From positions 6,369,006 to 6,433,005 of the forward strand of contig NZ_CP045293.1 of the NCBI RefSeq assembly GCF_009363075.1: a DNA stretch of 64,000 nt. The letters run 5' to 3'. Shown one piece after another: positions 13,095 through 36,782 of this stretch. This stretch comes from Paenibacillus guangzhouensis (GTDB lineage: Bacteria; Bacillota; Bacilli; Paenibacillales; Paenibacillaceae). The first letter of the stretch is position 1; every line of letters begins with the position of its first letter. The notes below the pieces were generated by a model. It saw only the letters and a list, made by a program, of their open reading frames with translations. It had not been told where the DNA came from and searched no databases. The position numbers and the translations under genes are program-made.

Positions 13095-13114
13095 TGTTTG
13101 ACGGAGGAGCTATA

Positions 13115-16981: not shown

Positions 16982-16993
16982 GAAAGAAGAGAT

Positions 16994-18121: not shown

Positions 18122-18124
18122 ATT

Positions 18125-18160
18125 AAAAAGAAGCTGTGACTTACATAACAGCTTCTTTTA
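18125..18160. terminator. Bidirectional Rho-independent terminator shared by dndA (+) and the convergent Toprim gene (-)
   Basis: Perfect inverted repeat aaaagaagctgt ... acagcttctttt. Confidence 0.65.
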
Positions 18161-18974: not shown

Positions 18975-21007
18975 AAGCCACCTCTAAGATCCAAGTCAAG
19001 ATTCTCAATCAGCCTTGCCAAACTAGGGCCAGAATAGTAATTTGAAGTTATTTGGCTGTTCTCATAGTTAAATCTATAAGCAGATATGAATGAATTAGTC
19101 AAACAGTTGTTAACCAAAGCATTAATGCATTCTTTGCTATGAGAGGTAACAAAAATCTGCACATTAAATATTTCAGCAAGCTCACCGATGAATTTAGAGA
19201 ATTCGACCAATAGGGAGTGGTGTAATGCATTCTCTAATTCATCAATGAATATTACTCCATTCTCAACTGCGGCAAATTGAAGAGATATGTGGAATATCCT
19301 CTGGAAACCTTCTCCAAAATTTGTGATATCCACTGCTGATTTGAAATTTTTATGGTTTACAAGGAAACGCTTCATCTCCCCTGCTAATTCTATATTTTCT
19401 ATTCCGCTGTCTAATCGTGAATTAATAAACTTAACTATACGTTCGATATTTCGAGTTTCTACACTTTTTTCATGTAATCTGATTAGTTCTTCCTGATTTT
19501 GCATTGAAAAGGGAGTTGTGTAGGTTGAGAAACATAATTGATGTATTTTATCATAGAAGATTTCATTTTCTTTCTCGATAAAAAGTCTTGATTGCGTAGT
19601 GAATGTTCTATCCTCTACGGTTGCTATTAAATTCAAAGAAGTGATATACGAGTTTTTATTTAGATTATTAATACTTTCTTCTTCTTTAACTAATTTTGTT
19701 GATATAGATTTACCTTCGAAGTTACCAGATATATTAATTTCATCAGGAATAACGGAAGAAAGCCATGAAAAATCTAACTCATCATGAAATTTTCCTCTTC
19801 TTCTAAATACATCATAGTAACCGAAAATATCATTTAATCGCGTAAGAAAGTAAAGGGCTTCTAAAAAACTAGACTTACCCGTATTATTGATTCCAGCAAT
19901 AATATTGATCTTATTCAAATTTTCTACTCTAAAGTTCCTGAAGAGTTTATAGTTTTCAATGTTTACAGAACAGAAATGATTTGTTACTTTTTCAATAAGT
20001 GTATTCTTTAACACTACAGTATTTTTACTAAAATCGTTGCCTGTTTGAGGAGATATACTAATTGCTTCAAGTAACTCTTGCTTATCTTTATAGTTTAAAG
20101 CTTTATCAACTGATTTAGTATTTTCCATATACAGAAGAGTTCTTTCGTCATCCAAAATTGAGCGAAGATTTCTTATATCGGTGTAGTTTTTGATTATACG
20201 TTCACCGGGAGAGTTATCACCGTTAGTGTTATCGTCTAAATCTTCTTCATCAATTGATAACCAATTAAACAATCGATTAAGGTTCTTACTATTACTTGCT
20301 TTTAAGTTTTCCTCATCCCATTCAATCCATGCTCTAAGATTCGGGCTTTTGATAATTTCTTCAAAAATTGTGTACATATCTGGTTTAAATTGCTCCCCGA
20401 ATTCGCAGATTCGGAACTGATCTATTAAACCTAAAGTTCTTAGTGCACGTTTAATAGTTCCTGATTTAATCCCTAGAGTATCTGCAACGTCCTTCTCATT
20501 TAGTTTTTTCTCATGAATTAAATAATGGAGATATTTTGCCTGATTCCAAGCAGGCCAGCTTTTTGTACCGCTTATATGTTTTAGGCCCATAATAATTTGA
20601 TAATTTTCAAGACTTTTTTCTGAATAGACCACGACTGGGATTGTAGAAAAAATGCTAGGATCTAGCCCTCCAATATCTAAACCAAGTTTATAACGTTCGT
20701 ATAAAACTTTTAATGTAGAGACACGACGATTACCTTCGATTACTTCATATTTGTCTTCTGATAAATTAGTTACCTGGATTAAATCTACAGGCAAATACCC
20801 ATTTTTTGTAAAACTCAGAAGCAAATCATCTATGTTTTCATTTTTGTTCCCTGTAACAAGAATTCTTGTTCTAGTTTGTAAAACAGGGTCAGTTATATCT
20901 TCAATTTTTTGTCCAAATTCAATCTCATGAACTAAGCGGAAATTTTTGGGATCTAGATATAGATTATCAATGTGGACTTCTTTGTGCTCATAAGCTTTAT
21001 CCATCAT
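18971..21007 (-). CDS. Fusion protein: N-terminal ParB/Srx-like domain, an HTH, and a C-terminal ABC-type ATPase (AAA_15/AAA_21, as in AbiLi, AriA and the OLD N-terminal half)
   Basis: 678 aa. ParB-like motifs LYLDPKNFRL and YEVIEGNRRVSTL. HTH-like IKSGTIKRALRTLGL. Walker A IIAGINNTGKSSFLEAL, Walker B VIFIDELENALH, H-loop IFVTSHS. Confidence 0.7.
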   Translation of the reverse strand: MMDKAYEHKEVHIDNLYLDPKNFRLVHEIEFGQKIEDITDPVLQTRTRILVTGNKNENIDDLLLSFTKNGYLPVDLIQVTNLSEDKYEVIEGNRRVSTLKVLYERYKLGLDIGGLDPSIFSTIPVVVYSEKSLENYQIIMGLKHISGTKSWPAWNQAKYLHYLIHEKKLNEKDVADTLGIKSGTIKRALRTLGLIDQFRICEFGEQFKPDMYTIFEEIIKSPNLRAWIEWDEENLKASNSKNLNRLFNWLSIDEEDLDDNTNGDNSPGERIIKNYTDIRNLRSILDDERTLLYMENTKSVDKALNYKDKQELLEAISISPQTGNDFSKNTVVLKNTLIEKVTNHFCSVNIENYKLFRNFRVENLNKINIIAGINNTGKSSFLEALYFLTRLNDIFGYYDVFRRRGKFHDELDFSWLSSVIPDEINISGNFEGKSISTKLVKEEESINNLNKNSYITSLNLIATVEDRTFTTQSRLFIEKENEIFYDKIHQLCFSTYTTPFSMQNQEELIRLHEKSVETRNIERIVKFINSRLDSGIENIELAGEMKRFLVNHKNFKSAVDITNFGEGFQRIFHISLQFAAVENGVIFIDELENALHHSLLVEFSKFIGELAEIFNVQIFVTSHSKECINALVNNCLTNSFISAYRFNYENSQITSNYYSGPSLARLIENLDLDLRGGL

Positions 21008-21652
21008 TAGGGTGCAACCCTCCTTTGTGATATTAATATAATAGTAGCATTTTCCATTCGGTTATGAAATGGATATATTCAATTATAGCCTTATATGATT
21101 AGAAATAACCCATAAAAACCAATATGTTTTATTGTTAGAATATAGGCTGAATATCTAGGAATCTTAAAGCCTTTACTTACTATAAAGCCTAATTATGTTA
21201 TTTTGTTGATGAATTATGTCAACAAACAATAAATCAATTTTGTTACGATGCATGTAGAAGGGTTAACTTATAGAATCTAAGCGATTCAATTCAATAAAAT
21301 ATTTACAATAACTCCATCGATCATTCAATTCACACCATTGTTAGTTTCAGGAAAATACTTTATCAACATAAACCAAAAGTATATATGAGAATTAATTTTA
21401 GAATAAGTGTCCTATTCATTATTTCAGAGCTACGTATACGAAAATCTCGTAATATTTTCACCCTGTTCCTCCACATATAAATAAGCGAAAATACGATCAG
21501 TGGCCAAGAACATCGAGGCACATGGGATGGGTTACTTCGCCTATTAAGTGTACCTATCCCAACTTATTCCTCAATGATCTTTCCACAGGAAGTTGCGGGG
21601 GCCGTTAAGGTCATCCGCATGATCCCAAATTATAGTGTAGGAGTAGATTGAG

Positions 21653-22822
21653 ATGGCGATCGTCCAAGTGAGATCCACGAATCCGCAGTTCTCGTATTTA
21701 ATTAAGAAAAATCCGAATTCCGGCATGATGCTTCGCTCGATCCGCAGAGGTATGACGTACGGATGGTACACCGATGACCAGACCTATAACGTTTATTTTA
21801 AAGACGCAGACAATGAAATTTCCTATAAACAGCATGAGCAGGAGAATTTCGAATATCTAAATGTATCGAGGTACAACACGCCGTTATTTCCTCTTAATGC
21901 TATTAATGAATTCTTCTCCGCGCCGCTTAAGGCACAAGACGAACGAGATGTAGAGGGTTATGAGCATACCTTCTTTATTAATATGATACATATCGAACTG
22001 ATCCGGTATATTGAGTTTTTCGAGAAACATTTGAAAGATTTCTCTTTCGAAATCACCCACCAGGCCCATAAGAGCTATTCGCTCACCGTTACGACGAAGG
22101 AGAGCCTGTATCAGCTGCTGCATGCGGTCAGTGTATTATGCTTATTCCTGTCCATGTTCGGCAACGAGTACATCGATATCTCGGACAGCATTCTAGATAA
22201 GTACATCAAGAGCATGAATGTGATTGATGCACCATTCTATATTCGTAGCCTGTTCGTACGGAACTTCTTGTCTTCAAGAGATCGGTTTCATAAATACAAG
22301 GCAGAGCTTGAGAAAACGGAGCGATATGACATTCAGTTCGCCTACGGAGGTACGGCACTGCAGCGAAGAAATTATATCGGAAGCGCACTGGCTTTTGACA
22401 AATCGATCTTGGATGTAGGGTGTGGAGAGGGATTCTATGCGCTCCCTTTTGCGGGGAAAATAGAAGGCAGCTACTATGCGGTGGATATCCATGAGGAGTC
22501 TCTGGAGAAGGTAAGGCGTAAAGCTGAGGCCAGGGAGATCGATAACATCGTCATATTCGGCTCGATCGATCAGTTCCTGGAAAGCTATAACGGAGAGCAA
22601 GTCGACGTGATTCTTACGGAGGTTATTGAACATATGAGCCAGAATGAGGCCAAACTGCTGATCCATCAAATCTCCGCGCATGTCGATTTTGACAGATTTA
22701 TTATCACGACGCCTAACGCCGATTTTAATATCTACTATGAGCTGAACGATTTCCGTCATGACGACCATAAGTGGGAAATGGGCGAGGAATCATTCCAGCA
22801 GTGGATGCGCGATGTGATTTAG
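21653..22822 (+). CDS. hen1: Hen1-like RNA 3'-terminal 2'-O-methyltransferase (class I SAM-dependent MTase with an N-terminal Hen1-type domain)
   Basis: 389 aa. SAM motif I ILDVGCGEGFYAL. Hen1-type metal motif VILTEVIEHM. Immediately upstream of pnkp. Confidence 0.65.
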   Translation: MAIVQVRSTNPQFSYLIKKNPNSGMMLRSIRRGMTYGWYTDDQTYNVYFKDADNEISYKQHEQENFEYLNVSRYNTPLFPLNAINEFFSAPLKAQDERDVEGYEHTFFINMIHIELIRYIEFFEKHLKDFSFEITHQAHKSYSLTVTTKESLYQLLHAVSVLCLFLSMFGNEYIDISDSILDKYIKSMNVIDAPFYIRSLFVRNFLSSRDRFHKYKAELEKTERYDIQFAYGGTALQRRNYIGSALAFDKSILDVGCGEGFYALPFAGKIEGSYYAVDIHEESLEKVRRKAEAREIDNIVIFGSIDQFLESYNGEQVDVILTEVIEHMSQNEAKLLIHQISAHVDFDRFIITTPNADFNIYYELNDFRHDDHKWEMGEESFQQWMRDVI

Positions 22823-22921: not shown

Positions 22922-25507
22922 ATGGATATTCAAACGAAAATTCATACGATTTTCATGCTGATCGGGTCTACCGAATGCGGCAAAACGACGTTCGCCAAGG
23001 AAGTACTAATTCCCGGGTTGCGTTTTGAGGATGCCAGCCGGAATGTTAGGGGCAACGTTCAATATTTATCCTCAGACCAGATCCGCCAGGAGGTTCTTGG
23101 CTATGAATACGATAAGTATGACCAAGTGATGCTCGAGGCTAGCGAACAAGCTTTTCACCTGTTGTTTGAACGGTTGAAGATGGCAACGTCTTTTCCGATC
23201 AATGCAGAGTTTGTGGTCGTTGATACAACTGGGTTGTCGGAGGATTTCCGCGCAAAGGTGAAGGAAGTTGCGTTTCAGAACAATTACAACCTTGAGGTCA
23301 TTGTCTTCGATTATCGCAAACGGGAAGATTATTATGCCTCGGAGCGTTCGAAGAAATTGATTACGAATCACATTAACCGTCTGAAAAAAGAAGTTCTCGG
23401 TTCGTTATCTCGCGAAGGATACGGCAAGATTCATAAAGTGCGCGCCAAGGATTTTTATCTGCCCGAAGAAGGAAGAGCGAACCCAGAATACAACATTGTC
23501 ATCGAGGATTTGGATTCTTATTTATCGACTGTTCTGCCACAGGATCAGCAATATATCATCATTGGGGATGTCCACGAATGTGTGGATGATCTGAAAGGGC
23601 TGCTCCTCGACCACGGGTACAAGATGGATGCAGGCAAGCTGGTTGTAACAGATAAGCTGAAGCATACCAAGCTCATTCTCGTTGGGGACTGGATTGATAA
23701 AGGCAAACAGACGCAGGACATCGTTCAGTTTTTATATGATAACCAGGAGCACTTCTACTTCGTGCTAGGGAATCACGAGAACTTCGTCGACAAGTATATC
23801 AAAGGTGAAATAAAAGGCGTCGATCAAGAGTTGCTCCATACGTATTTTGATTCAACGCAAGTGTTATTGAACGATTCGGTGCTACTGGATAAATTCCAGC
23901 ACCTCGTGTCGATTTCCAAACCGTTCTATCGGTATGTAGGCGTCAACGGTTCGTCCTTCTATGTCACACATGCCCCGTGCCGGAATAAATACATCGGGAA
24001 GCTGGATACGAATTCTATTCGACATCAGCGGAACTTCCGAATCGATCGGGAGGCGCCATTGGAGGGTCAACTTGCATTTCTGCAGGAGGAAGCGGTCAGA
24101 AATCATCCGTATCACGTGTTCGGTCACGTTGCAGCCAAGCAGTCTTTCCAAATCGGCAACAAGCTTCACATCGACACGGGAAGCGTGCATGGTAACCTAT
24201 TAACTTCCGTCAGTATCTCGTATAAGCCGTTTATGAAGTCCCACAAATCCCACCAAGCGGTGATTACTGAGGAATTGCAGACTTTATTCAAGCAAGAGCG
24301 AAAGGTATCCATGCAAGACCTTGCAGAGGACGATATCCGCAGACTCCATTATTGCTCGCGACACAAAATCAATTTCATCTCAGGTACCATGTCCCCAGCG
24401 GATAAGGACGACGAGACGAATGAGTTGGAATCCTTAAAGTGTGGACTCGAATATTTCAAAGAACGCGATGTCCAGCAGGTTGTTCTGCAGCCGAAATATA
24501 TGGGTTCGAGATGCAATATTTATTTGCATAGAGATCCGGAGCAATGCTTCGCTGTCAGTCGCAACGGTTACAAAATCAATCATGTGGATTTATCGGAGAT
24601 CTACGGTGAGCTGCTGCAAAAGTTCGGTAGCTATATGGAAGAGCAGAAGATTGCCATGATGATTCTAGATGGAGAGCTTCTTCCGTGGATGGCGCTTGGC
24701 GAAGGACTGATCGAAAGACAGTTTAAGCCTATTGAAAAATCGCTGGAGACTGAGCTAACATTCCTACAGCAAAACGGTTTTGAGGAAGCCTTTCTTAAGC
24801 TTATGACTGAGTACGAGGCGAGTGGTTTTGAACAAGATCAACATCATACAGCCAAGTCTGTGTTAAGTGATAAGTACGGCTCAAGCGTATACCAAAACTA
24901 TAAGTACGCCCATGATATTCGGGGAACGTATGTCCCATTATCCGAGCACATGAAGGCTTATCAAACGTATAGAAGACAGTTGGAGCTATATGCGCAAGAC
25001 GAGGCTATGAAGTATAAACCGTTTGCCGTGTTGAAAATCGTATATGATGACGGGCAGGAAGAAGTTCCAGAATGGAAGACCAGCGAGATGTATGCTTTTC
25101 TCTCGGAAGATGAAGCGATCACATTGGATCTATCCGAGCCGGACGGCTTGGAGCGAGCTGAACGTTACTTCTCGAAGCTTACGACGGAGAACCATATGGA
25201 AGGGATCGTAATCAAACCGGAGATAAGGAACGGAAAAACGGTACCGTATATGAAAGTGCGTAATCCCGATTATTTGTCCATCATTTACGGATATGACTAC
25301 AAGTTCCCGCATAAATACCGTAAGCTGCTTAAACAAAAGAATGTCAATCCAAAGCTTCGTACTTCACTCAAGGAGTACCAATTGGGGATGCAAATGCTAG
25401 CGGTACCATTTGATGCAATTACGCCTGAGCATGAGGCTTATAAAGAGATCGCTGCTAATCTACTGTTCGAGGTTGCACAGGAGCGGGAGATCGATCCGCG
25501 TCTATAA
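22922..25507 (+). CDS. pnkp: Bacterial polynucleotide kinase-phosphatase (Pnkp): P-loop kinase, calcineurin-like phosphoesterase and adenylyltransferase/ligase domains
   Basis: 861 aa. Kinase P-loop GSTECGKTTF. Phosphoesterase motifs GDVHEC, GDWIDKG and GNHEN. Ligase motif I-like KYMGSR. Confidence 0.85.
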   Translation: MDIQTKIHTIFMLIGSTECGKTTFAKEVLIPGLRFEDASRNVRGNVQYLSSDQIRQEVLGYEYDKYDQVMLEASEQAFHLLFERLKMATSFPINAEFVVVDTTGLSEDFRAKVKEVAFQNNYNLEVIVFDYRKREDYYASERSKKLITNHINRLKKEVLGSLSREGYGKIHKVRAKDFYLPEEGRANPEYNIVIEDLDSYLSTVLPQDQQYIIIGDVHECVDDLKGLLLDHGYKMDAGKLVVTDKLKHTKLILVGDWIDKGKQTQDIVQFLYDNQEHFYFVLGNHENFVDKYIKGEIKGVDQELLHTYFDSTQVLLNDSVLLDKFQHLVSISKPFYRYVGVNGSSFYVTHAPCRNKYIGKLDTNSIRHQRNFRIDREAPLEGQLAFLQEEAVRNHPYHVFGHVAAKQSFQIGNKLHIDTGSVHGNLLTSVSISYKPFMKSHKSHQAVITEELQTLFKQERKVSMQDLAEDDIRRLHYCSRHKINFISGTMSPADKDDETNELESLKCGLEYFKERDVQQVVLQPKYMGSRCNIYLHRDPEQCFAVSRNGYKINHVDLSEIYGELLQKFGSYMEEQKIAMMILDGELLPWMALGEGLIERQFKPIEKSLETELTFLQQNGFEEAFLKLMTEYEASGFEQDQHHTAKSVLSDKYGSSVYQNYKYAHDIRGTYVPLSEHMKAYQTYRRQLELYAQDEAMKYKPFAVLKIVYDDGQEEVPEWKTSEMYAFLSEDEAITLDLSEPDGLERAERYFSKLTTENHMEGIVIKPEIRNGKTVPYMKVRNPDYLSIIYGYDYKFPHKYRKLLKQKNVNPKLRTSLKEYQLGMQMLAVPFDAITPEHEAYKEIAANLLFEVAQEREIDPRL

Positions 25508-26019: not shown

Positions 26020-26223
26020 CTAGGAAGGTTCTCGTCTGTCCTTCCATTCATTTACTTCTCTAGGATCAATATCTAGAAGCTCGCAGATATGCAAAGCTAT
26101 GGTCACTGTGGGCGTTGTTATACCATGTTCGATGTTTTGGTAATGTTTCAATGAAACGTTAATAGCTCGACTTAGCTTTTCTTGACTAATACCTTTATGT
26201 TTTCTGGCTTCACTTAGATTCAA
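26020..26223 (-). CDS. XRE-family HTH regulator, apparently disrupted at its 3' end (C-terminal homology continues out of frame to about 25880)
   Basis: 67-aa ORF with HTH GISQEKLSRAINVSLKHYQNIE. DNA at 25880-26040 is homologous to the 3' end of the XRE gene at 41574-41700 but is not in the same frame. Confidence 0.5.
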   Translation of the reverse strand: MNLSEARKHKGISQEKLSRAINVSLKHYQNIEHGITTPTVTIALHICELLDIDPREVNEWKDRREPS

Positions 26224-26738: not shown

Positions 26739-26764
26739 ATGCCTCGATGCGTACGCTGGAGACT

Positions 26765-27180
26765 ATATGGAAGGGATCGTGATCAAACCGGAGATATGGA
26801 ATGGAAAAACGGTACCGTATATGAAAGTGCGGAATCCCGATTATTTGTCCATCATCTATGGATACGACTACAAGTTCCCGCATAAATACCGCAAGCTGCT
26901 CAAACAAAAGAATGTTAATTCAAAGCTTCGTACTTCATTCAAGGAGTACCAGTTGGGGATGCAAATGCTAGCAGTACCATTTGATGCAATTACGCCTGAG
27001 CATGAGGCTTATAAAGTGATCGCTGCTAATCTACTGTTCGAGGTAGCGCAGGAGCGGGAGATCGATCCGCGTCTATAACAGGGATGAGGTGTCTGACTTA
27101 GAGTCGGGCACTTTTCCTTTGTACAAAAGATGCGTAAATCTATAATTCTCCTATCTCTTATTTTTCGAAACAAGTATAAT
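26765..27180 (+). repeat. Direct repeat copy 2, containing a duplicated pnkp 3' fragment (ORF 26767..27078, 103 aa, a non-functional gene fragment)
   Basis: The 103-aa product is near-identical to the last 103 aa of Pnkp with a few substitutions (R>W, P>S, L>F, E>V). The downstream 100 bp are also duplicated. Confidence 0.85.
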
Positions 27181-27228
27181 ACAATTAATGGAATTGTTAT
27201 GATAGCATTGGGAAGCGAAGGAGTAGTT

Positions 27229-27784
27229 ATGTTAAATCAAGTTATGGAACAAAGCTTAAGCAAATTAATGACGAAGATTCTGCGGCACACACCGGAGGAT
27301 TTTGGAGTTCTCTTGGATCCTGAGGACAGTTCATGTCCGCTAGATTCGTTATTGGAAGCCCATTCAAGCACAGCCTAAGTGGTCGTTGGTTAAAATGGAA
27401 GATATAGAGCAGGTGGTCCGTAATTCAGAAAAGCAGCGTTTTGAAATCGAAGGCAGCCGCATCCGAGCAAGGTACGGTCATAGTCATGCCAAAGTCCAAT
27501 ATGCCCCGGGTGAGCCTCCGGCCATTCTATATCATGGAACGAATAAGAAGGCTCTTTCGTCGATCTTGAAGGAAGGGCTGCGACCGATGAGCCGGCAGTA
27601 TGTGCATTTGTCGGAAGGCACCCATTTTGCAACGCTGGCAGGGAGCCGCAGGGGAGAGCTTGTCATTCTCAAGGTAGACACCGCTCATGCCAAGCAGTTA
27701 GGAATTACATTCTACTACGCAGGGAACGAAGTATGGCTAGCTGACCGGGTGCCGCCTACAAGCTGCTCGGTCATGGAGCCCTAG
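27229..27784 (+). pseudogene. kptA: RNA 2'-phosphotransferase KptA/Tpt1 interrupted by a frameshift near 27370-27380
   Basis: N-terminal part LSKLMTKILRHTPEDFGVLLDPEDSSCPLDSLL lies in one frame and ends in a stop. The continuation KWSLVKMEDIEQVVRNSEKQRFEIEGSRIRARYGHS...HGT...RRGELVILKVD...VWLADRVP lies in the +1 frame. Together they align to Tpt1/KptA end to end. Confidence 0.7.
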
Positions 27785-27804: not shown

Positions 27805-28590
27805 ATGAATCATCCAATCATTGATATCGGTGTCAATTTGATGCATCGTTCGTTTCACCAAGATCGAGAGCAAGTGGTTGAAAGAGCGGCAGCGAATAAC
27901 GTTTCACCTCTTATCCTTACAGGAACGAGTCTAAGGAACAGCGTCGATGCGGCTCGATATGCAGGCCGTTACAAAGGAAAATTGTATTCTACAGCAGGAG
28001 TTCATCCGCATGATGCGAAGAGCTGCGACGATCGGACGATCGCGAAGCTCAGAGAATTGGCGGCGATGCCACAGGTTGTCGCAATTGGCGAGTGTGGTCT
28101 AGACTATAACCGGGACTTCTCGCCGCGGGATGTACAACGGAAATGGTTCGCTGAGCAAATTCAATTGGCGCTTGAGCTGAATATGCCGTTGTTTCTACAT
28201 GAGCGGGACGCATTCACGGATTTTACGGCGATGCTGAAGGAACATGCTGTACAGAAGGCAGTGGTACATTGCTTTACCGGGAATCTGAATGAACTGAAGA
28301 CATACCTGAATATGGGACTCTACATAGGCATTACAGGATGGATTTGCGATGAGCGGAGAGGGAAGCATCTGAGGGACCTGGTCCGCATCATCCCACTCGA
28401 CCGATTGATGATCGAGACGGATGCGCCGTTCTTAACCCCGCGCGATCTGAAGGAGAAGCCGGCAGACGGACGCAATGAGCCTGCATTCTTGCCGCATATT
28501 TTGGAAGCTGTAGCACGATGTACGGGTAAGACGGTAGAAGAGGTGGCGAAGGCTACGACGGAGACGGCCGTAGAGTTTTTCCGAATTTGA
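27805..28590 (+). CDS. tatD: TatD-family metal-dependent hydrolase/DNase
   Basis: 261 aa with TatD motifs GVHPHDA, AIGECGLDY, LFLHERDA, HCFTG and ETDAPFL. RBS AAAGGAG present. Confidence 0.85.
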   Translation: MNHPIIDIGVNLMHRSFHQDREQVVERAAANNVSPLILTGTSLRNSVDAARYAGRYKGKLYSTAGVHPHDAKSCDDRTIAKLRELAAMPQVVAIGECGLDYNRDFSPRDVQRKWFAEQIQLALELNMPLFLHERDAFTDFTAMLKEHAVQKAVVHCFTGNLNELKTYLNMGLYIGITGWICDERRGKHLRDLVRIIPLDRLMIETDAPFLTPRDLKEKPADGRNEPAFLPHILEAVARCTGKTVEEVAKATTETAVEFFRI

Positions 28591-28684: not shown

Positions 28685-29545
28685 TTACGAAGATCGTTCC
28701 TCATTGACTGTAGCGGTAGCGACGCCATATCGCTCCAACGCTTTCGTTGACGCCTTTAGCATCCTTCTTTTTAAATAATCTCCCTCGATCACCCGAACAC
28801 GTTTCCCGAGAAAACGAATCTTGGAAAGCAAATACTTCATTTCATCTCCTAGCAGAGAGACTCTGATTCGATAGGTATCATGATCCAGATCATACTCGAC
28901 ACTTTTTTCGAAGCTGGAGAAGGCGTAGAGGATGCGGGACAACTCTTCGTTATACATTGGAATAATCTCGATGACCACTTCACTTTTGCGCGAATCCAAT
29001 GTGTTACCGATTTCCTGAAGGATGCTCTCTGCAACTGATTGTCGGATCGATTCTTCTGTAACCTCATGAATATGCTTCAGCCGGGTGCTCATAAAGGCGT
29101 TATATCTGGTGTGGTACCATAGCAAATACCATTCTCTCTTGACCATGGAATATTCCAGCTTATACGGAAAACCTGAATGGTCTGTTTTCAATCGTCCGCT
29201 CTTAATCTCGTAAGTGATGCGAATTCCCGTCTTATTCATAATGTGCCGACGTAGTGTGGGCAGGAGCGGGTGATACACCTGTTTCTCCAGACTGCGGGCT
29301 TTTTCAATCAAATGAGAGGAGGTATCCATCACTTGATCCGACGCAAGGATGGAACGTAACTTGTTCAACGTGTCTGCAGTGAAAGCCTCGGCAGCCGCAG
29401 GATGTTCAAGCATCGTCTTCAGCCATGCCCGTTCATGCGAGGTGACCATGAAGGTACCGGAATCCTCCAAACGTGAGATGATCTGGTGGTTAAATATTTT
29501 CTCGAACAGGTTCATAGTAGGCTTGAATCTCCTTCCACTCGGCAA
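28685..29545 (-). CDS. WYL-domain protein without an obvious N-terminal HTH (WYL plus a C-terminal extension)
   Basis: 286 aa. WYL signature KREWYLLWYHTRYNAFMSTRLKHIH. Start uncertain (TTG at 29545 or ATG at 29515). Confidence 0.7.
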   Translation of the reverse strand: MPSGRRFKPTMNLFEKIFNHQIISRLEDSGTFMVTSHERAWLKTMLEHPAAAEAFTADTLNKLRSILASDQVMDTSSHLIEKARSLEKQVYHPLLPTLRRHIMNKTGIRITYEIKSGRLKTDHSGFPYKLEYSMVKREWYLLWYHTRYNAFMSTRLKHIHEVTEESIRQSVAESILQEIGNTLDSRKSEVVIEIIPMYNEELSRILYAFSSFEKSVEYDLDHDTYRIRVSLLGDEMKYLLSKIRFLGKRVRVIEGDYLKRRMLKASTKALERYGVATATVNEERSS

Positions 29546-30812
29546 TCATTTCCCGCCGGAGCTGCATAGGCTCTAGAATCTCGCAGCTGGAACCGAAACT
29601 GCGCAGCCATGGCTTGATTTCGGTCGTCCCGTTCACGGTAATTTCGTAGATAAACGCATGTTCATCTTCGGAGACGATCTGTCCCCACTGTCCCTGCAGC
29701 ATGACTCGGTCCTTGACGAAGTTTGGTTCGGACCCACCCGGATTATAGAATTTAGCGCGTACCGTCACCGGTCGTCCCGTATCGATGAGCCAACTATACT
29801 GCATTTTGGCGGCAAGTTCGGTCTTCTTTTCTTCACACCATGCCTCGTCCACAGATTCATCCTCTTCGATTTGCGTGATCCCTTCGATACGGTATTTGCG
29901 GATTCCCTCTCTGCCATAGGCAAGCAAATACCATCTACCATACTGATGATCGTACACAATCTTAAGCGGGAGCGTCTTCTCGGTTTTGCCTTCCGTATCC
30001 CGTTCAAATAAGGGGTTGGTATTCTTGGAGGCATAGCTTTTCTCGGACTTCGGCGAGAAGTAGAGAAAACGGACCTTCCTACGGTGACGGATCGCATGCA
30101 GCAGCGTGAACAGATGCGCCTCATCCAATATGCGTGAGTGATAGTGATATTTATATAAAAATGGCTCGACGGCATGCTGCTCGACTTGATTGCGCAAGAG
30201 AAGCTTCTTCAGTCCGTCACGCAGCAGATAACCTTGAACAGAAGGCACCTGCGTATTCGCCATGACGTCGACAAAATCATACAAATCGATAAGCTCTTCA
30301 TCCGATAAGCTGCGAACCAAGTCATCCTGAATGCGATAACGGTAGGGGCGAGGTCCAGGCTCTTTCTTGATGACTCCGACCTCCTCCAAGTATTTGAGAT
30401 CGGACCGAATTGTCTTCTCATCAGGGAGTGGAAGATCCGAAGATAGGCTGTTGCAGCATACATCCAAGAGCTCCATTGCCGTCAGAGCCTGCTCATTCAT
30501 CGCACCTAGCAGCAGCGAGATTCGTTGACTTTCGGATTCCTTGACGGATTTGGCGCGGAACAGGAACAAGAGCAGTGGATCGGTGGTGTCATAGTAGCTG
30601 TACCGAATCGTCTCGGATAATTCCTTACTCTGTTCTTGAGGCAAAACCTGATGCAGCGAGCTGACGACTTCTTTGAGCCGTCGTATTGTTTTATCGAATG
30701 TGTGGACGGAAATGCCAAGCCGTTCTGCGAATTGCTGTCTACTGAAGGCACCGCTGGTCAACACAAGCATACGTAGGAATTGGATTTCTTTATCAAAACT
30801 TTCCTTAGCCAA
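29490..30812 (-). CDS. HTH-WYL transcriptional regulator (YafY/PafB-like)
   Basis: 440 aa. N-terminal HTH FAERLGISVHTFDKTIRRLKE. WYL signature YGRWYLLAYGREGIRKYRIEGI. Overlaps the downstream WYL gene by 56 nt. Confidence 0.7.
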   Translation of the reverse strand: MAKESFDKEIQFLRMLVLTSGAFSRQQFAERLGISVHTFDKTIRRLKEVVSSLHQVLPQEQSKELSETIRYSYYDTTDPLLLFLFRAKSVKESESQRISLLLGAMNEQALTAMELLDVCCNSLSSDLPLPDEKTIRSDLKYLEEVGVIKKEPGPRPYRYRIQDDLVRSLSDEELIDLYDFVDVMANTQVPSVQGYLLRDGLKKLLLRNQVEQHAVEPFLYKYHYHSRILDEAHLFTLLHAIRHRRKVRFLYFSPKSEKSYASKNTNPLFERDTEGKTEKTLPLKIVYDHQYGRWYLLAYGREGIRKYRIEGITQIEEDESVDEAWCEEKKTELAAKMQYSWLIDTGRPVTVRAKFYNPGGSEPNFVKDRVMLQGQWGQIVSEDEHAFIYEITVNGTTEIKPWLRSFGSSCEILEPMQLRREMIAEWKEIQAYYEPVRENI

Positions 30813-31105
30813 TGGGATCCCCCGTTCAAATGAAACATCTTATACTATTGTATCAGGGGAGATACTTGGGTGAAATGGAAAACTTTATGGGCAGTCGTAA
30901 TACTTTCGCCATGTTCGTTCGGGTTGAAATGAGCGATGATAGAACCTGTAAGACGCACGGAGCAAGGTGGTAAACGCCAGATGGCGTTTCATCATACATT
31001 GTTTCTTATTCGGACGGTCGTAACGAGGCGAGGATATCGAGGTATCCCGCAGTGCCGCGCATGGTATGTGACTGTATCCTGTACGGTCGGATCGGTAAGG
31101 AACCA

Positions 31106-31136
31106 ACATTTGGGGTTCGATTCCCCAATCGCCTGT
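31106..31136 (+). other. tRNA 3'-end-like fragment (T-arm plus acceptor 3' strand) in intergenic DNA; possible att-site remnant
   Basis: tgggg-TTCGATT-cccca-atcgcctg has a canonical T-stem-loop, but no complete cloverleaf could be built from the upstream sequence. Confidence 0.25.
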
Positions 31137-31441
31137 GGAGCGATTTTGGTAGCATACTCGACTTCCAATCGAGCGAAAATTATTCAAAAGACCAAAAGGA
31201 TAGAATCCCTAGCGGCTATTTTAAGCGCACTGCAGGAAGGCTTTGCAGTCCGTGGATACCGATGGAGCGAAATTTCTGGAAGTTCTCTTGGATGGAAGAA
31301 TAAGTAGTGCGGCTGAAGCAGGGTCACGCTCTTATTCCAAAATCCTTGCAAACGAAGGATGGATTGCTCCGCTAAAGCGAGATTCCGCCAGAACGCAGTG
31401 GGATTCTAAGTCCATTGGTCGAACTATTTAGGGGGTTAACA

Positions 31442-32560
31442 ATGATGATTACAAAAGTAACGATTCAAGCAGACGAACGCGGTTTGCTATTTGATAAAGG
31501 AAGTTATGTGAAAAAGCTGATGCCGGGGACGTATCGCTTTTCCATGTGGTCTAAATCCACCGTTGTGGTGATGAATATCGCTAAACCGTTCCATGTGGAC
31601 GGAAAAGATCTGAAGTTGTTCCTTCATGACGAGAATCTCGTGCGTGAGCTCGATATTGTGCGGGTGCAAGATCATGAATACGTTCTGCACTACGAGGACG
31701 GACAATACGTACAATTGCTTAAGCCTGGTACCTACGCCTATTGGAATATGCTTAAAAAACATACCTTTGTGCATGCGGATATCCGACAACCTGAATTGCC
31801 TGTCGAGGTTAATCGTTCAATTATATCGAAGCTTACTGCCAATGTGCAGTCCTACGAAATCGCGAGTTACGAATCCGGATTTTTGTTCTATGACCACGTT
31901 CTACAACGAGAGCTGTCTCCTGGTAAGTACTACTTCTGGAGAGGTCCAGTCTCGACAATGGTTAAGACGATTGACCTAAGACAGCAACAAATGGATCTGA
32001 TCGGCCAGGAAATCATGACAGAAGACAAAGTCACGCTGCGTTTGAATTTCGTCTGCCAGTACAAGATCGTGAATCCACTGCGCGCGCTAGAAATGAAGTC
32101 ATTCGACGACCAAATCCATATCCAGCTTCAGCTTGCGCTTCGGGAATATGTCGGGGCTCTAAAGTTGGACGATCTATTGAGACGCAAAGAGGACGTAGCG
32201 ACGTTCGTACTTACTCGACTGCGGGAGAAGGAGGAAGAGTTCGGCGTGCAATTTCTGAGTGCAGGGGTGAAAGATGTCGTCTTGCCGGGGGAAATGCGAG
32301 ATATCTTGAACACCGTCCTGCTCGCGGAGAAGAGGGCACAGGCGAATCTCATTACGCGTCGCGAAGAGACGGCCTCGACCCGAAGCCTGCTTAACACCGC
32401 GAAGCTGATGGACGAGAATCAGACGTTGTTCCGGTTGAAAGAGTTGGAATTCCTCGAGAAAATATGCGAGAAAGTCGGGTCCATCTCACTATCGGGCGGC
32501 GGGGATCTGTTGGAACGTCTGAGTGCACTTATTGGTGAGAGGAAGGCTACGAGCAAGTAG
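31442..32560 (+). CDS. SPFH/Band-7 (stomatin/flotillin-like) domain protein with an N-terminal triple beta-repeat
   Basis: C-terminal half carries the SPFH pattern (TEDKVTLRLNFVCQYKIVNP...KDVVLPGEMRDIL...AEKRAQANLI). The N-terminal half carries three repeats: KLMPGTYRFSMW, LLKPGTYAYWNM and LSPGKYYFWRGP. The ATG at 31442 follows AGGGGG. Confidence 0.75.
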   Translation: MMITKVTIQADERGLLFDKGSYVKKLMPGTYRFSMWSKSTVVVMNIAKPFHVDGKDLKLFLHDENLVRELDIVRVQDHEYVLHYEDGQYVQLLKPGTYAYWNMLKKHTFVHADIRQPELPVEVNRSIISKLTANVQSYEIASYESGFLFYDHVLQRELSPGKYYFWRGPVSTMVKTIDLRQQQMDLIGQEIMTEDKVTLRLNFVCQYKIVNPLRALEMKSFDDQIHIQLQLALREYVGALKLDDLLRRKEDVATFVLTRLREKEEEFGVQFLSAGVKDVVLPGEMRDILNTVLLAEKRAQANLITRREETASTRSLLNTAKLMDENQTLFRLKELEFLEKICEKVGSISLSGGGDLLERLSALIGERKATSK

Positions 32561-32605
32561 TGAACACCATGCGGATGAGATTTTCCGATCCGTGCTGAGA
32601 GAAAT

Positions 32606-34195
32606 ATGGGAAAAAGGGTGATAAAAACAATGGTTATTTTCTTCAATAAAGCAACACGGTCGCCTTGGGAAGGGAAGGCTTCCATTTACGCATATATTCG
32701 TGATCAAGGGGAACATGTTGGCGATTCCTTGCCGGATGACGAGGAATACTGGTCAGACAGTCCAATCAGGTGGGTAGCCGGCGGAATGGATGGAGCATTA
32801 GGGCATCATGCAGGGAGCAGTGACGTGCCAAATGAGGCGCACGAGCTTGCGAACCTATTGGCGAAGCACTCCAGGAAACCGAATAACTCAACGAGAAAAG
32901 AGCTTTATGCTAGAGTTGTGACGGCTCAAGTAGGGGGCATGATGGACGCCATCTTGGACGAGGTGCGCAAACATCCCGGCATCCAAGCAGGTGTTGTTTT
33001 CGACGAGGCCAGATGGTTCGTTGAGCATGCGGCACATCGTAATGTCGTTAAATTCGGAATTGCGCTTTTGGGACTCTTTCAGAACGAACAGGTTAAAGAA
33101 CTGCTTCTTACGCTTGGTAGACATGAAGAATTTACACTATATTCCGCAGTAGCGATTCAGAATGGGATGGAAGACAGTAACGAGGTTCTCTTTGAGCTAG
33201 CTCAACATGTCCATGGTTGGGGGAAGATAAATCTCGTCGAGAGACTCGAGCCGAATACAACAGAAATTAAAGATTGGCTGCTTCGACATGGCTGCCAAAA
33301 TAGTATCATGAACGAATATCTAGCCTGTATTTGTGCGAGAAATGGAGATTTGCGAGAGGCTCTCGTACCGGATCAGGTCGACCGAGAATTATTTGAAGGA
33401 GCGTCTACGATCATCGAAGCGTTGTTGTATGGCGGTCCTGCCGAGGATATCGATGATTATGAACATGCGCCACAGGTGCTATCTGATTACGTGAGGCTGT
33501 CCGGGGAAATGTGCTCAACCACCAAGCATCTATCTGTCATGTTGAACATTCGAGACTTCTTAGATCAGGATGAGGAGAAGTGGGAAGGGCGGATGTCAGC
33601 GGGATGGACAGCGCAGGCAAGAGGCGATATTCATGATGCTTGTCAATTCATCATTGGTGATTCCAAGTGGAGCAGCTTAATTATGGATGCGGTCAGCTCT
33701 AATGACTCACAGAACCGCTACTATGGCGTGGCTTGTGCGGAAAAGCTCGGCATGGATATTTGGGAGACGCTCTATAGCCAATTAGCTGTAAATCCGCTTC
33801 AAGACGCACATTACCTTCAGCTCATGAAATCGAATGATCCCGCTAGAATTCAGAAGTTGGTTCATTTTGCTACGGAACATTTGCCGCTGCCGCAGATTGC
33901 TACAGGCCCTGGGGATGAAATGGGATTCGGCAAAGAATATGAAGCGCATAGAAGCTTGGACACCATTCTGCAAAGCTTGGATTCGTTCGAGGGGATGGGC
34001 AAGGAGCTGATCCTTACCGGACTGAAAAGTCCTGTGATCCGGAATCGGAATATGGCGATCATGGCGCTAGAGGGGTGGAACGTTGCTTCTTGGGGAGATC
34101 AGCTTATAAAAGCAGTTATACATTTATCAGGTATAGAGCCCGATGATTCTGTAAAAGAGCGACTTCAACAGCTGCGGACGGAAAAAGAAGTATGA
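32606..34195 (+). CDS. Hypothetical protein (about 520 aa), predicted alpha-helical, unknown function
   Basis: Long uninterrupted ORF in the same orientation as the SPFH gene. Alternative start at 32630. No recognised motif. Confidence 0.45.
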   Translation: MGKRVIKTMVIFFNKATRSPWEGKASIYAYIRDQGEHVGDSLPDDEEYWSDSPIRWVAGGMDGALGHHAGSSDVPNEAHELANLLAKHSRKPNNSTRKELYARVVTAQVGGMMDAILDEVRKHPGIQAGVVFDEARWFVEHAAHRNVVKFGIALLGLFQNEQVKELLLTLGRHEEFTLYSAVAIQNGMEDSNEVLFELAQHVHGWGKINLVERLEPNTTEIKDWLLRHGCQNSIMNEYLACICARNGDLREALVPDQVDRELFEGASTIIEALLYGGPAEDIDDYEHAPQVLSDYVRLSGEMCSTTKHLSVMLNIRDFLDQDEEKWEGRMSAGWTAQARGDIHDACQFIIGDSKWSSLIMDAVSSNDSQNRYYGVACAEKLGMDIWETLYSQLAVNPLQDAHYLQLMKSNDPARIQKLVHFATEHLPLPQIATGPGDEMGFGKEYEAHRSLDTILQSLDSFEGMGKELILTGLKSPVIRNRNMAIMALEGWNVASWGDQLIKAVIHLSGIEPDDSVKERLQQLRTEKEV

Positions 34196-34475
34196 TTACC
34201 AAGGTTATTCCTATATAAAAACGCAAGCGCCGGGCTCCCCAGTCCGGCGCTTATGCTTATTTTCTTTTATAGAGTTTTTCCCATTTCTTGGTCACTTCTG
34301 CCCGAGTCCGTCGTTGGTCCCTCGGATTAGTTGAAGTTTCCCATTCGTGACGCCGTAAAGAAGAATTGGTTGCACGGAAGTAAGATATGAATCTACGGCT
34401 CCATCCAATCATCAAAGTATGGTACGATTTGGATAGTGAGCATTTTTAGTTCCACATAGGGATTGGATGGTGTCG

Positions 34476-35362
34476 TGATGAAAGATGATCCATTATTCAA
34501 TAGAATCAAAGGCGGACTATACGGCGTGGCTGTCGGCGATGCACTTGGAGGAACGACCGAGTTCATGCATCCTCGTGAGATTAAAGCCCAGTACGGCTAT
34601 TTAACAGAAATCATCGGAGGCGGCGTCTGGTAGCTGGAACCAGGGGAAGTAACCGATGATACCATGATGACGCTATGCGTCGCGGAGGGGATTCTGGAGA
34701 ACCGCTTAGATCCGATGGAACCGATTGGGCGCCGATTTTTGGCTTGGTATCATACGAAACCAAAGGATATTGGCAATACCATTCGCCATGTGTTCAAAAT
34801 TTATGAGGGAGATTGGTTCGAGGCGGCGTTTCTCTCGGATATGGATCTAGGTCAAAGCGGGGGAAATGGGTCCTTGATGCGCTGTCTTCCGGTGGCGCTG
34901 GCCTATACCGATCTGCATGATTTGGAACGCGTATCACGAATGCAATCGAAAATGACACATTATGACGAGCAGTGCAGCGAGGTGTGCGTCATCTATAATC
35001 GAATAGCCCGCAGGCTCCTGCATGGGGGAGTGTTAAAAGATGCGATTCTGTCTGAGGTGTCCGGAACGGAATATGAGGCGTTTATCAAGAAAGCGCCTGA
35101 TTGCGAACCGAGCGGGTATGTCGTGCATACGTTCCGCTGGGTGCTGCACATTCTGCTTCATGCTTCGAGCTTCAGCGAAGTCGTGCAACAAGCGGCTAAT
35201 CTGGGGAACGATTCCGATACGATCGGGGCCATCGCCGGTGGTCTTGCGGGAATCCATTGGGGGTACCGCGAAATTCCATCGACCTACTCTGATGTCATCC
35301 TGATCAACGAACGTCTGAACGACATTGCCTTGCGATTGTATCGATCACGAGTAGGGGGATAA
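34476..35362 (+). pseudogene. ADP-ribosylglycohydrolase (ARH/DraG family) interrupted by an in-frame TAG at 34631-34633
   Basis: N-terminal GLYGVAVGDALGGTTEF...GGGVW then TAG, then LEPGEVTDDTMM...GNGSLMR...GNDSDTIGAIAGGLAG. All family hallmarks lie in one frame on both sides of the stop. Confidence 0.7.
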
Positions 35363-35411
35363 GCTTCGATAGACTATTTAATGCTATAAAATGCATCCAC
35401 GGGAGGAGCAC

Positions 35412-36782
35412 ATGTCAAGAAAAGAGCAATTAATTCGAATTCGCAGGAAGCTGGAACTAGCGGCTCAAGCGGACCCAACGTACAACGTATTCGGATCCAG
35501 AGCGCATCGATATCAACTGAATGAGCCGCTAAGCCTTGCTGAAGTAGAACAGTTTGAGCGAGAGCACGGGATCACGCTGCCAGAGGACTATGTTGATTTT
35601 ATGACGGAGATCGGGAACGGCGGCGCGGGACCCTATTATGGCATACATCCGTTGGGCGCCAAGCAGGCTATTGAACTTGATCTTATTGGACAGCCGTCAC
35701 CTTTGAAACCGAGGAACGAATGGAGCGGGACGGGCTGGTCTGAAGATAAATTGGTTGACGATGCTATGGATGATGAAGAAGAGGAATATCCGGGTCTGCT
35801 GAATATCGGTGAGCAGGGCTGTAGTTATGAGACGATGCTGGTCATTACTGGGGAATATCGCGGTAAAGTGATCTATATCAACTTAGACAGCCAGAAGACG
35901 TTTTTTACATATGAGGCGAACTTTCTCGATTGGTATGAACGTTGGCTGAACGAGACGATTGCGGGGTATGAGAACTCGTGGTTCGGGATGCGTCGAGGCG
36001 GCGATGATCGAGCGTTAATGGAGTTGTACCGTTCGACTGAAGATGAGCGGATACACATCGAAGCGTTGGAAGGGATGCTCAAGCTGCCGCGTATTGCCGA
36101 TGAGACGGTGGACTTTCTCATACAGCAGTATCATGCGAATGATGGCGAGGTGCGCCGCTGGGCGCTTCAAGTGCTAGCGAAGATGCGGTTTAACGAAGCC
36201 GAGCCCCTCATTAGGGAAATGCTTCGCAGCCAGGACGGAACAAATCGACTGCTTGCATTGCAATTGATCAAATGGTACCTGCCTGAAGGCGATCGGCGAT
36301 TTACGGCGGAGTTGGTCAGCATGGTGGCGCTGGAGAACGGTGTGGAGGCATTCCGATTCTTAACCAATATTTTGCATGAAGCCGAAGTGAATATGTTGCC
36401 ACTGATGTTACCTTTCTTCAGTCATGGGGACAAGGACATTCGGATTCAGGCGCTATATCAGGCGGGGCATGCTCCTGTTCCAGAGAGAGTAGAGCAATTG
36501 CATCATTTCATCGCTGCTTTAGATGATCCGGAAATATATGTGCAGCTCATCGCGTTGCAGGCCTTGAGTGGCGTGACGGACGCACGGCTCCTTGAAGTTT
36601 TTGAGCAGCTGCTTGAGCGGCATAAGACGGATAAGGATTATATCCGATCGAACGTGAAGATTCTGCTCGAGGGATTCACGTTCAGCGATCTGGAGCAAGT
36701 GGAGCGGGAAATTCCTGATGCGTTGCGGCAGGTGAAGGGGATATTAAGGAAGAAAATGATGGAACACAAGAAATTCTTATAA
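35412..36782 (+). CDS. SMI1/KNR4 (SUKH-1) domain protein with C-terminal HEAT-like repeats
   Basis: LPEDYVDFMTEIGNGG is the SUKH signature. C-terminal repeats NDGEVRRWALQVLAKM, DKDIRIQALYQAG and DPEIYVQLIALQALS. The ATG at 35412 follows GGGAGGAG. Confidence 0.65.
   Translation: MSRKEQLIRIRRKLELAAQADPTYNVFGSRAHRYQLNEPLSLAEVEQFEREHGITLPEDYVDFMTEIGNGGAGPYYGIHPLGAKQAIELDLIGQPSPLKPRNEWSGTGWSEDKLVDDAMDDEEEEYPGLLNIGEQGCSYETMLVITGEYRGKVIYINLDSQKTFFTYEANFLDWYERWLNETIAGYENSWFGMRRGGDDRALMELYRSTEDERIHIEALEGMLKLPRIADETVDFLIQQYHANDGEVRRWALQVLAKMRFNEAEPLIREMLRSQDGTNRLLALQLIKWYLPEGDRRFTAELVSMVALENGVEAFRFLTNILHEAEVNMLPLMLPFFSHGDKDIRIQALYQAGHAPVPERVEQLHHFIAALDDPEIYVQLIALQALSGVTDARLLEVFEQLLERHKTDKDYIRSNVKILLEGFTFSDLEQVEREIPDALRQVKGILRKKMMEHKKFL

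Follow-up and report, generated by a model that had tools for sequence, protein, structure and literature searches.

A link between Band-7 (SPFH) proteins and a tRNA-like RNA was proposed in 2016, when Burroughs and Aravind predicted, as relayed in a passage of bioRxiv 10.1101/312249, that RtcB systems contain a Band-7 scaffold together with a "Band-7-associated tRNA", or b7a-tRNA; the same passage describes the RNA as not validated. A literature search found no experimental test of this prediction. The roles of RlaP and KptA have been described (PMC7824862), and a 2026 paper notes an SPFH gene in the rtc locus of Pseudomonas aeruginosa (PMC13086221). Here, we describe a locus of Paenibacillus guangzhouensis in which an SPFH gene is preceded by a large structured RNA. 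The DNA analyzed was one stretch of 64,000 nucleotides (nt), called the window below (assembly GCF_009363075.1, contig NZ_CP045293.1, positions 6,369,006 to 6,433,005). We put the probability at about 0.62 that the core unit of this locus is a two-part module, the large structured RNA and then the gene for a cytosolic SPFH (Band-7) protein, within RtcB-centered RNA repair.

Two other kinds of ribonucleoprotein invite comparison. Vaults are ribonucleoproteins that contain small RNAs along with a TROVE protein and a PARP, and the major vault protein (MVP) has nine repeats. YrlA and the other bacterial Y RNAs are bound by Ro60, also called Rsr (Rfam RF02553; PMC4201824).

An earlier, sequence-only reading of the window had listed the SPFH gene, an open reading frame (ORF) of 529 amino acids (aa), an ADP-ribosylglycohydrolase (ARH) gene, a SUKH-HEAT gene, and a divergent WYL pair, and had called the region an accessory stress or conflict locus rather than housekeeping. 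All of these genes exist, at or close to where they had been placed (Table 1). The SPFH, 529-aa, and SUKH-HEAT proteins are each 100% identical to an NCBI protein of P. guangzhouensis. The accessory character was borne out as well, and the region can be described more specifically as an RNA-repair island.

A large structured RNA upstream of the SPFH gene

The stretch of 630 nt between the WYL pair and the SPFH gene had been taken as plain intergenic DNA, but it holds a large structured RNA, which is conserved more than anything else in the locus and is consistently paired with this SPFH family. Synteny was examined in 79 genome loci with SPFH orthologs of 66-90% identity, from Paenibacillus, Fontibacillus, Gorillibacterium, Marinicrinis, and Ammoniphilus. 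In nearly all of these, the DNA upstream of SPFH was 67-88% identical over 300-629 nt, and this conservation was also kept in loci without the WYL pair. The conserved block starts at an invariant GTCGTAATACTT (30894) and reaches the ribosome-binding site, a length of 490-640 nt in most loci. The conserved RNA domains (31001-31407) account for ~410 nt and, with a 53-nt leader box termed box5, the element comes to ~540 nt altogether. A protein-coding explanation was considered and rejected, as no frame is open across loci and the indels are not multiples of three. The ORFs found in the stretch occur on both strands and are by-products of the DNA conservation.

A consensus fold with 126 pairs in 22 helices was scored on 43 aligned sequences. 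The controls were slid folds, in which one pairing partner was shifted by 1-3 columns. Cells were paired in 90.3% of cases compared to 35-43% in the slid controls, and compensatory changes were seen in 75 of the 126 pairs compared to 36-42 in the controls. The covariation score was 0.224, whereas the slid controls gave ~0.06 and shuffles had a mean of 0.134, with 0 of 500 reaching the observed value. Compensatory changes affected 23 of 40 pairs in helices 3-6 of the 5' domain and all eight pairs of the helix that closes the 3' domain. The RNA was assigned to the forward strand because of its many conserved G-U pairs. In profile searches upstream of SPFH, all 80 loci had box5 as well as the 5' and 3' domains, and 79 of the 80 also had the tRNA-like module described below and thus all three core RNA domains. 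No family in Rfam 15 explained the RNA, neither when 14 kb were searched at E <= 1 nor when the element alone was searched at E <= 10, and only a T-arm fragment was matched. ARAGORN reported no tRNA or tmRNA.

Metagenome and viral contigs were then scanned with an RNA motif covering the 5' domain and the T-loop. The metagenome scan gave 80 stretches, and an SPFH homolog (31-97% identity) follows the motif in 56 of them. Most of these homologs are distant (38 of 56 are only 31-48% identical), and a short RtcB gene often comes next. In the distant loci, the motif lies 270-715 nt (median 476) from the SPFH start, with one or two T-loops and canonical D-arms. Eight of the matches lacking an SPFH gene were examined and resemble chance matches inside ORFs, while many others lie on contigs that end too near the match to judge. 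No match was found in the viral contigs scanned. Since the motif precedes distant SPFH homologs, it is the large RNA, and not just a tRNA-sized piece, that is the old and consistent partner of SPFH.

In one genome, Paenibacillus sp. CCS19 (locus L009), the RNA occurs three times in a span of 14.5 kb, at 700-1179, 2881-3365, and 8422-8907. An SPFH paralog comes after two of these copies, while the third is an orphan that lacks a downstream SPFH gene.

The RNA contains a permuted tRNA-like module

Between its two larger domains, the RNA contains a module with the arms of a tRNA in permuted order: a T-arm (GGGGUUCGAUUCCCC), a loop-capped acceptor stem, a D-arm, and an anticodon-like hairpin. The capped acceptor stem covaries, with C-G in 38 sequences and U-A in four. 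In the window, the acceptor stem reads AUCGC-CUGUGGA-GCGAU and the anticodon-like arm CUCGA-CUUCCAA-UCGAG, and the D-loop has decayed to UUGGUAG. The module of locus L065 scored 29.9 bits with the Rfam tRNA model (gathering score 29) and matched YrlA positions 29-81 at 27.6 bits. The more distant locus L087, with an SPFH protein that is 41% identical, scored 42.2 bits with the tRNA model and 33.1 and 32.6 bits with YrlA. L087 has two tandem, interleaved modules of T-arm, capped acceptor stem, and D-arm at 12281-12412 on the reverse strand, and the tRNA score of 42 bits runs across them.

The module resembles YrlA in the order of T-arm, loop-capped acceptor stem, and D-arm and in the partial matches of L065 and L087. 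YrlA is also associated with RtcB loci and has been proposed to supply the RNA of a protein scaffold. There are also differences. The YrlA scores of 27-33 bits (27.6-33.1) lie far below the gathering threshold of 69, YrlA had no match in the window, and the partner here is SPFH rather than Ro60. In addition, the RNA is 4-5 times longer than YrlA, its 5' and 3' domains are unrelated to it, and its anticodon-like arm is a closed hairpin. The Ro60/Rsr (TROVE) family was not seen among the identified recurrent neighbors, where no query aimed at TROVE was made. Compared to the b7a-tRNA, as far as the cited passage describes it, the RNA differs in that a permuted tRNA-like module of ~65 nt is set inside a structure of ~410 nt, in place of a stand-alone tRNA-sized RNA.

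Another possible explanation is that the upstream element is a purely cis-acting leader of the SPFH mRNA, for instance one that senses either a protein or tRNA in an uncharged or damaged state, and not a partner RNA. The RNA always shares the strand of SPFH and lies directly upstream of it, and its last helix ends ~35 nt before the ribosome-binding site. No terminator-like site was found on the forward strand between the 3' domain and that site, so the RNA could act only in cis. Rfam, however, recognized no T-box or other leader family, and the order of the module is that of a protein-bound RNA, YrlA. The orphan copy in L009 has no SPFH mRNA to lead. Furthermore, box5 stands before RtcB in L034 and before DUF6847 in L052, with the rest of the RNA after that gene; because a gene is inserted there, the RNA of such genomes must be internal to a longer operon transcript. 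We consider a purely cis-acting leader unlikely.

The SPFH protein carries two extra beta sub-domains

Pfam Band_7 (PF01145) spans aa 143-309 of the SPFH protein (E 7e-23; 82 bits, with a cut-off of 23.6), and the best sequence match in the PDB was stomatin (E 1.6e-15), limited to aa 141-345. The databases name the family "slipin family protein" (NCBI) and also "regulator of protease activity HflC". The protein contains no membrane segment, with a top 19-residue Kyte-Doolittle mean of 0.83, which agrees with the lack of a transmembrane anchor in the sequence-only reading.

That reading had also described three N-terminal repeats of about 45 aa. The PG(T/K)Y-aromatic motifs are present at aa 26-36, 93-103, and 158-169, and the repeat is real because profile-profile comparison of the three units, using profiles built from 36 orthologs, gave P values of 5e-7 to 2e-6. 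However, the units repeat every ~66 aa, and the ~45 aa correspond to the core that is conserved within each. In addition, only two of the units are extra. The third is the canonical beta sub-domain with which the SPFH fold normally starts, and therefore the protein has two additional copies of this sub-domain, which stand where a membrane anchor would be.

The AlphaFold2 model (pLDDT 81.7) places five-stranded beta units at aa 3-45, 70-113, and 135-178, followed by the SPFH alpha/beta core and a helix of ~60 residues (aa 283-344). The N-terminus was modeled as beta strands with a pLDDT of ~90. In Foldseek searches with this model, MVP chains aligned over 420-475 columns, the whole model, compared to ~240-290 columns for stomatin, HflK/C, prohibitin, erlin, and flotillin. 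MVP was thus the only solved structure aligning along the full length. The predicted fold shares with MVP the N-terminal five-stranded beta repeats, an SPFH-like "shoulder", and a long helix. It differs in having two extra repeats (4, 6, and 8 in relatives) rather than nine, in having Band_7 as its sole Pfam match with no Vault or MVP_shoulder match, and in having an SPFH core nearer to stomatin. Vault RNAs, in turn, are not tRNA mimics of this kind, and a cage is a proposal here.

The N-terminal module is widespread. An HMMER scan with aa 1-140 found it in 389 clusters at 50% identity. The relatives P0249 (496 aa), P0243 (637 aa), and P0244 (787 aa) have 4, 6, and 8 extra N-terminal beta units, respectively, and all end in Band_7. 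This series comes near the nine repeats of MVP, and another relative, P0331 (3093 aa), has nine matching stretches. The sequence-only reading had regarded the architecture as undescribed, which did not hold, since this is a large family named by NCBI with 389 module clusters, and the combination of Band-7, RtcB, and tRNA-like RNA is, according to the preprint passage cited above, part of the 2016 prediction.

One extension of our proposal is that the RNA and the repeat-bearing SPFH protein form a soluble, vault-like bacterial ribonucleoprotein cage. The number of beta repeats, which ranges from 3 to 9 units in the relatives, would determine how long the wall is, and the cargo or organizer would be the RNA of ~400-500 nt with one or two tRNA-mimic modules. 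We regard this joint claim as tentative and, on present evidence, somewhat doubtful.

The opposite view is that the protein is an ordinary membrane-microdomain scaffold of the stomatin/HflC type and that the conservation upstream has nothing to do with what it does. For the SPFH core, stomatin is the closest match, the database names point the same way, and the order of an SPFH core and then a predicted oligomerizing helix is shared with stomatin, HflK/C, and QmcA. Unlike those scaffolds, the protein has no hydrophobic segment that could serve as a transmembrane or hairpin anchor, and it has extra beta units and an RNA partner, which was found upstream in all loci profiled. Neither NfeD nor FtsH, nor another protease partner, appeared among the recurrent neighbors; repair genes recur nearby instead. 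An ordinary membrane scaffold is therefore very improbable.

Table 1. Positions in the window of the RNA-SPFH module and of the features around it

Feature	Position	Strand	Size, evidence, or remark
box5, 53-nt leader or cis element (GTCGTAATACTTTCGCCATGTTCG...AGCGATGATAG)	30894..30946	+	5' edge of conserved block
RNA 5' domain	31001..31103	+	two nested closing helices, two hairpins, invariant CCGCAGUGCC and GGUAUCCUGUAC
tRNA-like module, permuted order	31108..31173	+	alignment of loci, helices 8-10
RNA A-rich linker	between tRNA-like module and 3' domain	+	
RNA 3' domain	31202..31407	+	long irregular stem closed by AGAAUCCC / GGGAUUCU, internal branches; helices 11-22
SPFH/Band-7 protein	31442..32560 (start 31442/31445)	+	371-372 aa
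SPFH beta repeat 1	31448-31576	+	repeat analysis, AlphaFold2
SPFH beta repeat 2	31649-31780	+	repeat analysis, AlphaFold2
SPFH beta repeat 3 (canonical SPFH N-terminal sub-domain)	31844-31975	+	
SPFH alpha/beta core and long helix	up to ~32473	+	
RlaP C-terminus remnant	32574..32646	+	~25 codons; tblastn to RlaP residues 248-271, E 5e-4
ARM/HEAT solenoid protein (529-aa ORF)	32630..34195	+	probably 521 aa from 32630
Intrinsic terminator-like hairpin at the end of the RNA-SPFH-solenoid unit	34225..34252	+	12-bp stem, 8 G-C pairs, T-rich tail
ADP-ribosylglycohydrolase (ARH) gene	34478..35362	+	Pfam E 5e-45; premature TAG 34631-34633
SUKH (SMI1/KNR4) and HEAT protein	35412..36782	+	SMI1_KNR4 (PF09346, E 5e-9) and HEAT_2
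Divergent overlapping WYL-type pair	28685..30812	-	440 aa and 286 aa
Second box5 copy	21447..21495	+	nhmmer E 1e-4; ~160 nt upstream of Hen1-Pnkp operon
Hen1	21653-22822	+	Pfam
Pnkp	22922-25507	+	Pfam
KptA/Tpt1, frameshifted	27130-27784	+	Pfam
TatD	27805-28590	+	Pfam

RNA-repair genes recur around the module

Genes near SPFH were counted in the 79 genome loci. In 22 of them, the gene that comes directly after SPFH is RlaP (PF10127, E 7e-98). RtcB is present in 26, as well as in 17 metagenome loci, and is arranged in one of three ways: inserted between box5 and the RNA, as a downstream paralog, or in a short form after the 529-aa gene. Pnkp/Hen1 were found in 13-14 loci and KptA in 11, and TatD also recurs. 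The locus matches the RtcB/Band-7/b7a-tRNA systems because its neighbors in related loci are RtcB, RlaP, the WYL pair, Pnkp/Hen1, and KptA. As in the part of the published account cited above, a Band-7 gene adjoins a tRNA-like non-coding RNA, and RtcB and RlaP share the operon in many of the orthologous loci. The window itself differs from those systems, lacking RtcB and keeping just a remnant of RlaP.

The window copy of the repair system is trimmed: RlaP is deleted, RtcB is absent within the 64 kb, and KptA and ARH are disrupted. A metagenome contig that is 96% identical (L144) keeps an intact RlaP at the position of the remnant. The frameshift in the gene for KptA/Tpt1, an RNA 2'-phosphotransferase, leaves ORFs of 82 and 132 aa, while relatives have an intact protein of 192 aa. 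Thus, three damaged genes (the KptA frameshift, the ARH amber codon, and the RlaP remnant) fall within ~8 kb, due to either decay or assembly errors. In the same island, the 3' end of pnkp is present twice, on either side of a 1.57-kb insert, as a direct repeat (25191-25490 and 26762-27061) that is at least 300 nt long and 94% identical. A small XRE-type HTH ORF (26020-26223, reverse strand) lies in the insert, which resembles a small integrated element.

The surroundings of the repair genes also have the look of a defense island. At 13094-21007 there are dnd-like genes (PAPS_reduct, AAA_23, a 128-aa ORF, and Aminotran_5), which adjoin oppositely oriented genes for an AAA_21 ATPase and a DUF3226 protein, with the RNA-repair genes next door.

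The RNA-SPFH particle could accordingly be a defense decoy or sensor and not a repair scaffold. The tRNA mimics would attract anticodon nucleases or phage factors that target tRNA, or report them, and the cage would sequester them. Such a role fits the tRNA mimicry of the module, the defense-rich setting (the dnd-like genes, the AAA_21/DUF3226 pair, and the WYL regulators), and the persistence of the module in the window genome without a nearby ligase. However, the recurrent partners are repair enzymes (RtcB, RlaP, Pnkp/Hen1, and KptA) and not effectors, PADLOC recognizes neither the SPFH nor the solenoid protein, and the RNA motif was without a match in viral contigs. A decoy or sensor is, in our judgment, distinctly unlikely.

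The solenoid gene may belong with the module but ARH and SUKH-HEAT do not

The 529-aa ORF had been described as coding for a large unknown helical protein. The ORF is real and its product had no Pfam or NCBIfam match. The AlphaFold2 model (pLDDT 90.6, pTM 0.85) is all helices in an ARM/HEAT solenoid, with designed armadillo proteins, CAND1, and importin-alpha as its best fold matches in the PDB. The family has a database name, "limonene hydroxylase", in both NCBI and UniRef. This name traces to a clone from Bacillus stearothermophilus BR388, and the enzyme is an oxygen- and NADH-dependent monooxygenase (PMC4097962). The model has no recognizable cofactor-binding domain, and the gene is found within RNA-repair operons; in L002 (Paenibacillus sp. 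1_12), L005, L016, and L027 it sits between SPFH/RlaP and a short RtcB. The predicted fold and this context suggest that a role as an adaptor in repair would be more plausible than one as an oxygenase. The "limonene hydroxylase" name, which hundreds of ARM/HEAT proteins in these operons bear, is probably misleading.

Two further genes follow. The ARH gene is interrupted by one in-frame TAG, as the sequence-only reading had noted, through a single CAG-to-TAG change at codon 52, which is Gln in the intact 294-aa ortholog of P. terrigena. The two are otherwise 85% identical over 293 aa. The spacer between the 529-aa gene and ARH (34196-34477) is ~470 nt shorter than in P. terrigena (L080 6299-7053), and no RtcB or RlaP remnant was detected in this spacer in the window or in P. 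terrigena. The last gene has the SMI1_KNR4 and HEAT_2 composition ascribed to it earlier, and its product shows no significant similarity to the 529-aa protein. SUKH domains are typical of immunity proteins. No recognized toxin gene adjoins the SUKH-HEAT gene in the window, although one ortholog (L082) adjoins a SUFU-family gene. Its sole conserved neighbor is ARH, a link seen in just the closest relatives. PADLOC and NCBIfam searches with the four proteins gave nothing specific beyond WYL.

The sequence-only reading had joined SPFH, the 529-aa gene, ARH, and SUKH-HEAT into one conserved four-gene conflict or immunity operon. The genes share a strand and are closely spaced, they have the same order in P. 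terrigena and one metagenome contig, and the SUKH domain would suit an immunity function. Nevertheless, when the conservation of this arrangement was checked, it recurred only in these closest relatives, P. terrigena and the 96%-identical contig L124. The 529-aa gene follows SPFH in six of the 79 loci, ARH is present in one, and SUKH-HEAT-like matches, weak and located on the other side, are present in two. An ortholog of the SUKH-HEAT protein with 72% identity sits in an unrelated neighborhood, and ARH is disrupted in the window. Because of this scarce co-occurrence and the strong terminator hairpin after the 529-aa gene, the four genes do not form one conserved unit, and we give the four-gene operon hardly any credence. 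ARH and SUKH-HEAT are recent, lineage-specific neighbors outside the conserved system.

A shared leader element and the WYL pair

The box5 element is nearly invariant in the 43 aligned loci. It may act as DNA because it shows almost no covariation (helix 2). A motif search found two matches in the window compared to 0.05 expected by chance. Since the two copies stand upstream of the RNA-SPFH unit and of the Hen1-Pnkp unit, one regulon is suggested, in which box5 is probably a shared DNA-level or leader element joining both units. No convincing sigma-70 promoter was seen in box5 by eye, and none was found in a promoter scan.

Several variants of this arrangement were seen in related genomes. 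A copy of box5 also lies upstream of Hen1 in L008 (1848-1894), L012 (1771-1816), and L023 (2159-2204). A full-length RtcB stands between box5 and the RNA in L034, L043, L049, L050, L059, and L061-L064. In the P. elgii / ehimensis / tyrfis group (L052-L058 and L060, at ~8700-9520), this place is taken by DUF6847 (151 aa).

The divergent WYL pair was found as described earlier. The 440-aa protein has HTH_11, WYL, and WCX domains, and the 286-aa protein, just under the Pfam WYL cut-off, matched the PADLOC WYL model (E 1.6e-13). The pair lies upstream of the RNA in 27 of the 79 loci and is a likely candidate for the regulator of the box5 units. It resembles PafBC-type WYL pairs in consisting of adjacent overlapping genes, divergent from the unit that they probably control, and in the HTH, WYL, and WCX composition of its larger member. 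It differs in that neither protein gave a match to a solved WYL protein in a PDB sequence search; any regulation of box5 by the pair is putative.

Proposed mechanism

To our knowledge, all solved SPFH proteins and MVP oligomerize into a ring or cage. The SPFH protein would likewise assemble, by way of its C-terminal helix, into a soluble ring or cage, with a wall lengthened by the beta repeats, and this assembly would bind the large tRNA-mimic RNA. The resulting ribonucleoprotein could present or organize broken tRNA-like substrates for end-healing and sealing enzymes, namely RtcB and RlaP where related genomes encode them and, in the island of the window, Pnkp/Hen1 and KptA. The ARM/HEAT solenoid encoded next to SPFH may serve as an adaptor. 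The divergent WYL pair would regulate the system, with the shared box5 tying the RNA-SPFH and Hen1-Pnkp units into one regulon. The data show how the RNA is conserved and structured, how consistently it is paired with this SPFH family, which genes are associated, and which folds are predicted; we infer the RNA-protein binding, the cage, the repair role, and the regulation by the WYL pair.

Some of the data weigh against this proposal. Its first two steps, SPFH oligomerization and the binding of the RNA, are ones that we infer, and the missing terminator between the RNA and SPFH would also suit an RNA that acts only in cis. The single-sequence fold energy of the RNA is unremarkable (z = -1.6). 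In the lineage of the window, the D-stem and D-arm have decayed, and Rfam recognizes only the T-arm, weakly. Neither type of RtcB gave a tblastn match in the 64-kb window, even at E <= 1, and RlaP is not intact. Either a repair role here would thus rely on enzymes whose genes lie elsewhere, or the module may do something else. Lastly, deletion of the SPFH gene of the P. aeruginosa rtc locus gave no phenotype in standard assays, in a paper whose available part does not list RNA damage among the conditions (PMC13086221).

Significance of the RNA-SPFH module

What vault particles and cytosolic SPFH proteins do has long been an open question. The locus provides a concrete pair for it: a structured RNA of ~410 nt, absent from Rfam 15 and with strong covariation, and a small soluble SPFH protein with a predicted vault-like architecture. 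The two occur together in all of the related loci examined, across distant lineages. As this kind of system had already been predicted, the points worth following are the extended RNA and the vault-like repeat series. The box5 element may define an RNA-repair regulon under WYL control. If the vault-like cage is true, prokaryotes would have their own counterpart of the eukaryotic vault, one that is tied to RNA repair and may be related to the vault.

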